A DNA stretch of 64,000 nucleotides from Raja brachyura (Eukaryota), in NCBI GenBank assembly GCA_963514005.1, contig OY740810.1:10850001-10914000 (forward strand). The letters run 5' to 3'. Position 1 is the stretch's first letter; the number at the start of each line of letters is the position of its first letter. The notes beneath the pieces were generated by a model. It saw nothing but the letters and a program-made list of their open reading frames with translations. It did no database searches and was not told the DNA's origin. Position numbers and translations under genes: made by a program. Of this stretch, positions 5,061 to 16,980 are shown piece by piece.

Positions 5061-6498
5061 AATAAGCGAGTTCGGTATTCCGATAAACGCAAGGAATTAT
5101 GGGTTTTGTCAAAGGTCATTCGGGGAGAAAAAAACGAACGCAGTGCTGTATAAATTGTGTATAAATTGTTAACTATTCTACCAATTAATTAATCTAGAAT
5201 TCTGTCAACGCAATAGCTTCCTTTCTTGCTGTGCTGTTCACACGCTACTTGCACAGTCCCAATTCTAGTTCTGTTCATTAATCTGCAACTATGAGATATT
5301 CAAAATGTTAAAGAATTTATTATTTTCATTTAATCCTTAATGTGTTTGCTACTGGAATAAGAATATATCACTTGTGTTTGAAACATTTTCTTATCTTTAT
5401 TAATTTATGTGTCAAAAATTTATTTAATCTGAGGCAGGCAGCGACTGTATCAGTGTGATGTGGGCTGATGCTTTGCCTACAGGCAGTGTGAATGTACTGT
5501 TGAGACGGGGGTCGGCAGCCTACGGGACAGTTTTGACTAAAATGGTTTTACATTGTGAAGTTCACTGTGCCTGAGTTATTGATCAGAGTGAACACCCGCT
5601 CCTGTGGACACATCTCACTGTGGAGTCTGTCACAGACGGATTCCACTGCCTGTTCAATAATTGGATCGATCTCCTGAACCAGTGGCTGCGGATCTACCGC
5701 TGTGTGTTCTTTCTGAACTGAACTCGCTGTTGAATGAACCCATTAACAGAGTCACTCTGTTGCCAGATTCTAAGTTGTCCCTGCCTTCCCTCTGGAATCC
5801 TCCTCATCCCCATCAGATGCCGAGTTCCCAGAGCCCTGGTTAAATGTGGCCGGTCATGGTTAAGTCTGTGAAACTGGCCCCATCAGAGACTGTGGGGAGG
5901 ATTAACAAAAGAAAGATGGCAGTAGCGAGAGTGAGAGTCTGTTTCAACAGTTTGTTTATTTTCAGCTGAGTTAAAAAAAAAAACACAAAGCGACCTGAAT
6001 GATCACCGCACTTATTGCTGATGTCCTACATGCTGCCATTGATTACTATGGCAGTATATATGATTACAAGTTACAGTACTATACCACAAGGAGTGAACAA
6101 ATCCAAATATAACAGAAAACTGTAAAAGTTCGTTTGCCGAAGTTCTTACTAGGCACACTAATAACTGCAATGAGCTTTAAGCAATATTATGTCTACTGAA
6201 CATGGCAGTTAGTTTGAGACACTGGTATAACAGTTATATACACCTGAAGCATAAAACAATAAAACACCAAAGCATAAAGCAATAAAACCAACAAAATTGT
6301 CATAGTTTTGTACAAATAAACCATAAATACACCTAGTTGATAGTTTTGAAAGCAGTATTTTCTTACCTCGAAGAAGCAAAACTGGAAAATACGGATGAAA
6401 CACAGCTCTCTGCACGCAGCAGCTCGGCTGGTGAGAATTTTTATCGCGAATGACTTATGACATGGGCATGAGCAGTTGAAATACCGAACTCGCTTATT
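5061..6498. mobile_element. Element A: non-autonomous DNA element with perfect 19-bp terminal inverted repeats (AATAAGCGAGTTCGGTATT)
   Basis: 5061-5079 is the exact reverse complement of 6480-6498; both subterminal regions are homologous to the ends of the elements at 12949-14493 and 16278-16980; no TSD evident. Confidence 0.8.
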
Positions 6499-6949
6499 GA
6501 TAGGACACTTCTTTTGGAGAGTAGTAATAAAAACTTGGACAAGGAGAAACATGTGATCAGTGCCACATTTGAAACGGCCAAAGCTCCAATAAATTTCATG
6601 TTGACTCTGCAGTCTGGTCTGTAAGTACATTGTTTATTGATTTATTCATTCTCCTATACCCTTCGCATTTGGCTTCTAGACCACTTTGTGTTATTGGATA
6701 TTTGATGGATATTTCGGAAGGTATGGTACCATGCCAGTTGCAAGACCTGTAAGAGCTATGTTTTGACTAATATTGTTTTTAGAAAAATTATATTCTATTT
6801 TTATTGATATATTTACTGCTGTCCCCAACTCTAAATTGTTGGAGCGTAAGTTTGGTCCTCTGATCTGTTTTGACACTGATATGTTTTTTCCATATAATTG
6901 GAGGGATATATTTCTACGGTCTGAAATGAGTAGAATTATGTTGCATACA

Positions 6950-8625
6950 CCGTACCCTCCATAATGTTTGGGACAAAGACCATCATTTATGTATTTGCTT
7001 CTGTACTCTGTAATTTGAGATTTGTAATAGAAAAAATTGCATGTAGTGCACATTATCAGATTTTAATAAAGGCTATTTTTATACATTTTGGTTTCACCAT
7101 GTAGAAATTACAGCAGTGTTTATACTTAGTCGTCCGTCGTTGTCCGTCTCCGTCTTCTCCCCCCCCCCCCCCCCCCCCACCCCATTTCAGGGCACCATAA
7201 TGTTTGGGACACAGCAATGTCATGAATAGTAAAGATAACTACTTTCATATCTTGTAGCATATCCTTTGCATGCAATGACTGCTTGAGGTCTGCGATTCAT
7301 GGGCATCACCAGTTGCTGGGTGTCTTCTCTGGTGATGCTCTGCCAGGCCTGTATTGCAGCCATCTTTAGCTTATGCTTTTTTGGGGGGCTAGTCCCCTTA
7401 GGTTTTTTCTTCAGCATATAAAATACATGCTCAATTGGATTCAGATAGGGTGATTGACTTGGCAACTCAAGAATTGATCATTCTTTAGGTTTGAAAAACG
7501 CCTTTGTTGCTTTAGCAGTATGTTTGGGATCGTTGTCTTGCTGTGGAATGAACCGCCGGTTAATGAGTTTTGAGGCATTTGTTTGAACTTGAGCGAATAG
7601 GATGTGTCTATACACTTCAGAATTCATTATGCTAATAACATCAGCAGTTGTATCATCAATGAAGAAAAGTGAGCCAGTACCTTCAGCAACCATGCATGCC
7701 CAGGCCATAACACCCCCACCACTGTGTTCCACAGATGAGGTATATGCTTTGAATCTTGGGCAGTTCCTTCACTCCATAATTTGCTCTTGCCATCACTCTG
7801 ATATAAGTTAATTTTCGTCTCATCTGTCCACAAGACCTTTTTCCAGAACTATGGTTGCTCTTTTAAGTACTTCTTGGTGAACTGTAACCCGGCCATCCTA
7901 TTTCTGCAGCTAACCAGTTGTTTGCATCTTGCAGTAGAGCCACGGTATTTCTGTTCATGAAGTCTTCTGCGGACAGTGGTCATTGACAAATCCTAAAGAG
8001 TGTTTCTGACCTGTCACATGTGTTTGTGGATTTTTCTTTATTATAGAGAGAATTCTTCTGTCATCAGCTGTGGAGGTTTCCCTTGGCTTGCCAGTTCCTT
8101 TGCGATTAGTAAGCTCACCAGTGCTCTTGCTTCTTAATGATGTTCCAAACGGTTGATTTTGGTAAGCCTAATGTTTGGCTGATGTCTCTAACTGATTTAT
8201 TCTTGTTTCTCCGTCTCATAATGGCTTCTTTGACTTTCATTGGTACAACTTTGGTCCTCATGTTGATAAACAGCAATAAAAGTTTCCTAATGTGATGGAA
8301 AGGCTGGAGGCAAGACAGGGTGCTGAGAGCTCTCTTGTACCTGCATTAAGGAGGCAATGAAACTCACCTGAACAATTACAAACGCCTGTGAAGCCATGTG
8401 TCCCAAACATTATGGTGTCCTGAACTGGGGTGACTATGTGCAAATACATCTGTAATTTCTATATGGTGAAACCAAAATGTATAAAAATGGCCCTTAATAA
8501 AATCTGACAATGTGCACTTTAACCACGTGTGATTTTTTTTTCTCTATTACATATCTTAAATTGTGGAGTTCAGAGGCAAATAAATAAATGATGGGTCTTT
8601 GCCCCAAACATTATGGAGGGGACTG
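6950..8625 (-). mobile_element. Tc1/mariner transposon with IR/DR-type long TIRs; transposase pseudogenised
   Basis: Terminal ccctccataatgtttggg inverted repeats, with inner repeats at ~7189-7210 and ~8398-8420; minus-strand fragments WTDETKINL, GGGVMAWACM, QQDNDPKHTAK, SPYLNPIEH (DD34E type) in different frames; TA at the right flank. Confidence 0.92.
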
Positions 8626-15050: not shown

Positions 15051-15125
15051 ATGGGTTTGTGAAGAAGTCCCTGACCTTAAGCTTGCTATGGAATACCACG
15101 TGCTAGTGGACTATGACACCAAATG
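15051..15125 (+). CDS. DOT1L: DOT1L exon 3
   Basis: ag|[24 protein letters not shown]|gt, 75 bp. Confidence 0.96.
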
Positions 15126-16277
15126 GTAAGGATGTCTTCTGATAATTTTGAATTTAATTAACAATGAAATTAACATTTGAATGTGAATCATGCTGATGCT
15201 GAAGAGATTTTATGAGTACAGGCAGTTCTCCTATATCGTGTGTTTCCATAATGTTAATGGGATAAAATGCGATGGATGAATTGGGGAACACTATTTATAT
15301 ATGCAGGCCGAATTGTTTATGAAAATATTTCAAACGATAACTAGAAAACCACTTGAGTTACTTTGGAGGATAGAAAGTGTTGGAGAAAATGGATAGGTGG
15401 TGGTTTGGTGTCTTCAGACTGCAGACTCTTCTGCAGTCTGAAGCAGGGTCCTATTCACTTTCTTCACAGATGCTGCCTGACCCGGCTGAGTTTTTTTTTG
15501 TAAATCAGCATCTGTGGTTCTTTGTGTCTTAAGTTACTTTGGAAATTGTTGAGCAGAAAAAACACTGTCTTGGTTTTTAAAAAACCTGTCACGGTGAAGA
15601 AGAACTGTTTCCATGGAGGCTACCAGCTAGTTTCACAGCGTGTGGTCAGTGAAATTACCAAGCAATTACTTTGATTGATACTGGTGCAATTATACTATGT
15701 TAAACAATGTAACCTGCAACTTTCAATAATTTTAGCTTGCAGTAACCAAAATTAACTTCCAATATTAAAAAAAACTGTTTTTGAAAATTCTGCAGGAAAA
15801 AAATGTCAAGCACTTTCTAGTCCCTAACCACCACCGCCATATTTGACGCAATTGTTTTCAAAGGAATTTTCTATAATGTGAGATTTCTTATAATACAGCA
15901 ATAATGTTGTAACAGACCCACCTATAGTGGAAATTAAGGCAGTTGAACAAATTCCATATATCCATCCTAGAATATTAAAAACAAAACAGAAAAAAACTGA
16001 AATGCTAACTCGATTTCCCTTTGCACAGATGTGGCCTGACCACCTGAATATTTCCAGCAATTTTTTCTTAGATTTTCTCAAAACTTCATTGTTCATTCTA
16101 AGGGATAAAAACTACGAGCCACTTATTGGAATAGGGAGACCTGAGATTCTAAAAATAGTGCATTCTTAAATACTCTTTGTGTAGTGATTAGCAAGGTTTG
16201 TGTAAGGGTTCTTTAATAGGACATTTACTTGAAAGCTCCCAGTATGAAAATTACTATTTATTAAACAATAACGATGA

Positions 16278-16980
16278 TGGGGTGGGGGGGGGGGGGTGTG
16301 GAGATTGGACCGGCACTCATCCGCAGAACTGCGCCTCATTTGTAGCCAGGATCAATCCCCGTGTCCCTGCAGCCACAAGAGCTGCCGAACCGCCACTGGA
16401 CCATCCCCGGTTCTTCCCCCCACTCGAGTGTCCCATCCTCCCCCGGGGGGGGGGGGGGGGCGACCGGAGATGTCTGGACCAATGGGACACCGCCCCCAGG
16501 CCCACCGCCAGCATGAACCCACAGCCAGCGCCAACTCTAGCCCAACCCCCAACCCCGCTCCAACTACAGAGGGACTCGCTCCCCGATGGGCCGCTACGGC
16601 GACAAGTGCCAGTTCGCCCACGGCCTAGTCGAGCTGTGTTCTGCCCCTATGGTAACCCCTGCCAGTTCATCCAGCCGGCGGCTGCCCATCTTCAGCAGGA
16701 TCTCAGTGGGAGAGTGAGGGGAGGTAGGTGGAGGGCTGCCGGCCAACCCGGCAGAGCCGAGCAGGAGCCAGCGGCTGCAAGTCCGGGGCCGCTCCATCGC
16801 CCCGGACACCTCTGGATGGGACACTGGGGAGGGGACGGAGACGTCCCAGCAGCAAGAAGAGCACCCCGACCCTGGACTAAACGTATGCCTGCACATAATG
16901 CAGCACCACCGTTGCCGAGACTTTGTAGCTAGTGACCTATGACCCGGGCATGCACAGTCAGAATAGCGGACTCGCTTATT
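16278..16980. mobile_element. Element C: internally deleted relative of element B; left end not clearly preserved
   Basis: Ends gacctatgacccgggcatgcacagtcagaatagcggactcgcttatt (16980), homologous to the A right end; 16278-16400 aligns with the reverse complement of B ~14050-14175. Confidence 0.75.
16592..16717 (+). pseudogene. Deleted ZFP36/TIS11-family fragment
   Basis: Three out-of-frame pieces: RYGDKCQFAHGLVEL / FCPYGNPCQFI / SRRLPIFSRISVGE*. Confidence 0.85.

Follow-up and report, generated by a model that had tools for sequence, protein, structure and literature searches.

Which kind of element has carried pieces of a host gene through a skate genome, and how did it acquire them? The question is raised by a window of 64,000 nucleotides of Raja brachyura (G000:C32:10,850,001-10,914,000), in which three copies, here called A, B and C, have related ends and B and C contain sequence of the ZFP36 gene family. 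The initial annotation described a non-autonomous family, scattered through the genome, whose members have ends in common but differing interiors, one interior being a captured host gene fragment. Searches covering the 2.7-Gb genome support this description. They lead us to conclude, with high confidence, that all three copies are non-coding members of an ISL2EU family, and that the ZFP36 fragment of B and C was likely captured once and then likely mobilised in trans.

Termini, target site and coding partner

The perfect 19-bp inverted match of A (5061-6498) was confirmed, and B (12949-14493, minus strand) possesses both the left and the right end. C was thought to share both end blocks; it has the right end at 16980 but no left end and starts at about 16279. 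The terminal 11-mer occurred seven times with at most one mismatch, compared with 0.62 expected, and the subterminal block common to A and B was found as predicted (Table 1).

Filled sites read A[AT]AAGCGAG...CTCGCTT[AT]T. Paralogous empty sites of five insertions into other repeats (L022, L024, L037, L048 and L052) display a 4-bp core, nATn; L079 has a damaged end and yielded no usable empty site. The core was AATT in the best-matching empty sites, TATT in one case, and variable in the more distant L052 paralogues. As the empty-site core is nATn, the outer three bases of the 19-mer belong to the target, and the terminal AAT is a host target base followed by a 2-bp AT duplication. The outermost base is variable (A in 44 and 46 of 50). 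AT was present at both ends of 79 of 91 paired elements, AATT being read in 63, a count that is not independent because the ends had been found with the target bases included. A classical target site duplication (TSD) outside the 19-mer was rejected: among 50 elements, four showed one of 2 bp and two showed one of 3 bp, while duplications of 4-10 bp were absent from all 50. The earlier statement that no TSD exists thus holds for the sequence beyond the 19-mer, but the empty sites place its outer three bases in the target. In the subfamily majority the inverted match is perfect over 23 bp, or 20 bp once the target is removed.

Inspection of long copies for a mobiliser revealed remnants of a DDE transposase and of a YqaJ gene inside family ends. 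The DDE_Tnp_4 search gave 152 matches; a family end was present at one of 30 loci examined, and another locus, on C16, is 88% identical to that one. The C16 locus contains an open frame of 542 residues from stop to stop (527 from the methionine) with THAP, HTH_Tnp_4 and DDE_Tnp_4 domains. Several of the 17 YqaJ matches adjoin family ends, and a 316-aa frame scores PF09588 with an E value of 5e-16. Two copies, one of 4,164 bp on C13 and one of 2,177 bp on C10, combine both family ends with convergent transposase and YqaJ remnants, the transposase remnants being 54-76% identical. Also on C10 (G000:C10:17.47-17.50 Mb), three right ends (L042, L043 and L027) have an identical flank, which suggests that a transposase-derived copy was duplicated there, either segmentally or in tandem. 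Clusters of YqaJ-domain frames occur at G000:C14:29.04-29.09 Mb (three open at 376-389 aa) and C50:1.47-3.03 Mb; the ends of this ISL2EU family were not found in the stretches examined there.

The closest named relatives of the transposase are a Leucoraja erinacea protein (95% identity) and a partial Rhinoraja protein, followed mostly by proteins of marine invertebrates at 53% or less. These homologues carry the same domain set but are not named as transposons. Given the 95% identity and shared unusual residues, the C16 frame and the L. erinacea protein are likely to represent the same insertion. Domestication of the C16 transposase was considered and rejected: 14 silent and 43 replacement changes were counted on its branch, a ratio of 1.16 that resembles the 0.79-1.44 of decayed copies, so that the frame evolves neutrally on this branch and gives no sign of purifying selection. 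An abundant DDE family with an open frame of 469 aa was likewise dismissed as mobiliser, its loci having no end motif and a different left end. This DDE_Tnp_4 family (L083-L109, e.g. G000:C15:41.467 Mb) is young and separate, with many copies 98-99.5% identical and a left end reading GGGCC after TAA or AAA; it is likely of the Harbinger type and possibly was active recently.

ISL2EU belongs with IS4EU to a group within the PHIS superfamily, according to PMC4482050 and PMC4122938; the former gives A-AT-T as its site and GG as the usual, though not obligatory, start of its terminal inverted repeat (TIR). The A-AT-T target, a THAP-HTH-DDE transposase within family ends and a YqaJ second open reading frame (ORF) were all found in the skate family. 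Neither the 3-bp TWA duplication nor the Myb/SANT second ORF of PIF/Harbinger was observed, and the 4-bp nATn core differs from the AAA-TTT target of Spy, which is not duplicated.

The hallmark of Cryptons is a tyrosine recombinase ORF. A Crypton-like mobiliser that inserts without target duplication, as first suggested, would agree with the lack of duplication beyond the 19-mer in 50 elements, and blunt insertion into AA-TT fits the empty sites equally in form. However, the insertion site matches that of ISL2EU, and the long copies with family ends hold remnants of a DDE transposase and of YqaJ, although no genome-wide recombinase search was made. A Crypton-like origin is therefore largely refuted and we give it hardly any probability.

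Donor, capture and decay of the ZFP36 cargo

The presence of ZFP36-family sequence in B and C was verified. The cargo derives from the last exon of a single host ZFP36-family gene; it spans approx. 700 bp, beginning in the middle of finger 1 and reaching into the 3′ untranslated region (UTR). In B it comprises the second half of CCCH finger 1, finger 2, the C-terminal motif, the stop codon and approx. 170 nt of 3′UTR. Three intact ZFP36-family genes were found in the genome. B matches the one on C40 (G000:C40:16.746 Mb) over 634 bases at 80% including the 3′UTR, whereas the other two match only the fingers and a short C-terminal stretch. The C40 gene was the nearest paralogue in all 42 copies with enough finger sequence, seven of the 49 having been dropped as too short. 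Its closest named relatives are ZFP36-like, L1-like or L2-like, inconsistently between sources; from its motifs it may be the tristetraprolin orthologue. No end motif was present in 19.8 kb around this donor. The top 30 ZFP36-core DNA hits were mostly bordered by family ends within approx. 1.5 kb (both ends 16, left only 9, right only 4, none 1), which places the cargo between paired ends elsewhere in the genome, as anticipated.

Most copies share the left junction: 30 of 49 begin at one exact host base in finger 1 and 37 within 8 bases (host positions 8584-8591). The longest copies extend approx. 175 bases beyond the stop codon, while in most a common deletion has removed the UTR part. Ten cargo-free copies were aligned to the backbone, and five of them showed the same backbone on both sides with approx. 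280 bp of other sequence in the cargo position. The backbone also supplies an in-frame ATG at the junction, which is present in cargo-free copies as well. On the left, element and host share GCC, a 3-nt microhomology, and on the right approx. 9 nt of filler derive from neither side. These two features suggest that the junctions may have formed by joining at microhomology in the course of template switching or gap repair. According to the mechanism we propose for this cut-and-paste family of the ISL2EU type, which sits at A-AT-T targets, a ZFP36-family fragment would likely have been copied into one element a single time by template switching during break repair, and the cargo element would then probably have spread through the family transposase acting in trans.

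As the cargo is wholly exonic, an RNA intermediate is compatible with it, and a ZFP36 retrocopy (cDNA), either inserted into one element or serving as repair template, might have been the source instead of the genomic locus. Yet the cargo ends approx. 175 nt into the 3′UTR without poly(A), it replaces approx. 280 bp of backbone rather than being added to it, and its junction shows microhomology. We consider a retrocopy source unlikely.

Between the majority sequence of the copies and the host gene, 15 codons out of 176 differ, 10 without changing the residue, and the median non-CpG divergence of copies from this majority is 5.6% (n = 47). At non-CpG sites the ratio of replacement to silent changes is 0.90, and selection on the cargo was rejected on this value; CpG sites give 0.74. 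Judged by these substitutions, the ZFP36 copies decay near-neutrally and give no sign of function, and the elements would at present be inactive. Retention of the cargo for a function, as a predicted protein of approx. 177 aa that would combine one finger with the C-terminal motif and may have aided spread or been co-opted, could be read from the lower CpG ratio and from the junction ATG, which is in frame in 35 copies, the majority being open to the host stop codon. It is nevertheless very unlikely in view of the non-CpG ratio, the frameshifts, stops or deletions in most copies, the occurrence of the ATG already in cargo-free copies and the preponderance of cargo-free GC-rich copies over cargo copies in an end-based sample (65 vs 14; see below). 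One cargo copy (L190/L228, G000:C6:82.058 Mb) is open for 182 residues from the backbone ATG and retains the second CCCH finger.

Family make-up and the window copies

Searches with the right ends of A and B returned 404 and 1754 candidates, confirming that the ends are dispersed; in end and interior searches the best 40 candidates were scored per search. An 18-base end motif matched the genome exactly 970 times (reversed control: 0) and was present in exact form in 54 of 184 ends of paired elements found by similarity, one element being counted twice. These counts suggest some 3,300 family ends, an approximate value because the sample favours copies that are well preserved. The make-up was determined at 90 loci from the first 100 listed exact ends, two of which are the ends of one element. 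Left out were three already in the set (one each of A, ZFP36 and D), one in another stretch and six others. The sample contained 14 ZFP36 copies, 65 GC-rich copies without ZFP36, three A, five D, one transposase-derived and two unassigned. With approx. 16% of sampled ends carrying cargo, we estimate 250-500 ZFP36 copies, in line with the 468 unverified candidates of the cargo search.

Additional subfamilies are defined by the interiors of A (800 candidates), D1 (230) and D2 (217), by a 200-bp insert whose place in the backbone is fixed (150) and by a 219-bp segment (228); common repeats that inserted later account for many other internal segments. A D-type interior (L272:1460-2560, approx. 220 candidates) gives the impression of non-coding regulatory DNA. 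Three different payloads had been assigned to the window, which in fact holds two types, B and C carrying the same one. Nor is a separate payload in each copy supported: interiors characterise subfamilies that number hundreds of copies, and the ZFP36 payload is the only one whose host gene was identified. Nothing shows a spliced gene in A, described before as spliced-gene-like; its interior is common lengthwise to many dispersed copies, and neither a coding remnant nor a host donor was identified in it. When left ends of transposase-bearing copies were aligned, the block shared by A, D and GC-rich copies did not appear in them.

Table 1. Features of the window copies and of the open transposase frame (window positions unless a locus is given).
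Feature	Position	Strand	Remarks
Copy A, non-autonomous ISL2EU element, uniform A subfamily	5064..6495	+	relatives mostly 1.6-1.7 kb
Left target bases of A	5061..5063	+	host A, then AT duplication
Right target bases of A	6496..6498	+	AT duplication, then host T
Block common to A, D and GC-rich subfamilies	5388..5434	+	counterpart in B 14240-14291
Copy B (GC-rich subfamily), non-autonomous ISL2EU element carrying ZFP36 cargo	12952..14490	-	
AT duplications of B	12950-12951 and 14491-14492		
ZFP36-family cargo in B	13255..13888	-	frameshifted; 80% identical to host gene at G000:C40:16.746 Mb
DOT1L exon (host gene)	15051..15124	+	matches solved DOT1L chains; not part of element
Copy C, ZFP36 subfamily as B	16279 (about)..16977	+	left-truncated and internally deleted
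Three ZFP36 remnants in C	16590..16733	+	86-96% identity to host gene; left junction as in B
Right target of C	16978-16980		AT plus T
Open ISL2EU transposase frame	L112:4242-5870 (G000:C16:2.678 Mb)		without ends

Exons of DOT1L span approx. 14566-17682 of the window, with B upstream and C downstream of the exon listed in Table 1. From exon matches at the sequence level, B (antisense) and C (sense) apparently lie in or beside DOT1L introns. At approx. 6949-8626 the window contains a decayed element whose inverted repeats are long and whose transposase frame is broken; from its motifs it is presumably Tc1-like.

Several points weigh against the assignment to ISL2EU with a single capture. The TIR begins with AA (AAG), whereas the usual start in ISL2EU is GG. 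The target is palindromic, and an AT duplication and a blunt AA-TT insertion therefore look alike in sequence; the duplication would thus be assigned by precedent. No intact two-ORF autonomous copy was seen among the loci examined, and the sole open transposase frame, that on C16, has lost both ends. As the cargo lies within one exon, its sequence does not separate a DNA from a cDNA origin. Finally, the top 30 hits obtained with the A, D1, D2 and 200-bp interiors included no host donor, though with the best 40 candidates scored per search an unconstrained donor could escape. A more far-reaching version, that the family is a serial capture vehicle whose A, D, 200-bp and 219-bp interiors are all host-derived, and that some ZFP36 copies within introns yield transcripts with an effect on the parent gene, appears improbable to us. 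If it were true, each of these host interiors would have been amplified to 150-800 copies, so that the family would match Pack-MULEs in an animal and on the scale known from plants, and intronic ZFP36 copies would act as antisense, small RNA or one-finger truncated protein.

Relation to known elements and implications

Plant Pack-MULEs are non-autonomous elements with TIRs; their interiors are mosaic and contain GC-rich gene fragments, and the skate family resembles them in all these respects. MULEs belong to a superfamily other than ISL2EU and have long TIRs and 9-11-bp duplications. With ISL2EU, as portrayed in PMC4482050, the skate family shares the A-AT-T target, a short TIR, a THAP-HTH-DDE_Tnp_4 transposase of approx. 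527 aa, a YqaJ ORF and a length of 4-5 kb. It differs in its AA start and in its large mosaic non-autonomous progeny with host cargo. The host differs as well: this is a skate, whereas PMC9179366 reports ISL2EU as undetected in gar, coelacanth and elephant shark.

The main text of one survey (PMC8277862) lists 370 animal Pack-TIRs, 87% of them hAT or TcMariner and four multicopy, with one example in three copies. Like these, including the multicopy Pack-hAT-N8_XT and Ssk-FB4, the skate element contains host sequence between both TIRs, has a TIR-less parent locus and occurs at distinct sites. GC-rich cargo, a microhomology junction and recurrent transposition are further common features. By the survey's main text it is set apart as an ISL2EU element with an estimated few hundred copies. 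Bat Helitrons also amplify host gene fragments in a vertebrate, to hundreds or thousands of copies by the account in PMC4224331. In contrast to the one donor of the skate family, they draw on many, and they move by a rolling-circle mechanism without TIRs or DDE transposase.

None of the titles and abstract openings in the literature searched concerned this family or transposon-borne ZFP36 in skates; Repbase and Dfam, which lay outside the comparison, may name the family. We describe a Pack-TIR of high copy number that belongs to a known superfamily; one host capture is proven for it, and its copies are now decaying. Scale, superfamily and host lineage are new as far as the literature was searched, while the mechanism is already known. 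In the survey's main text (PMC8277862), host DNA captured by cut-and-paste elements seldom exceeds a few copies; in the skate, the estimate for a coding fragment taken from a regulator of mRNA decay is a few hundred. Since donor, junctions and cargo-free form are all recoverable, the capture mechanism can be studied directly. For annotation of skate genomes, spurious ZFP36-like hits are to be expected from cargo copies. Furthermore, ISL2EU in a cartilaginous fish bears on the proposed teleost-only horizontal gain of this group.

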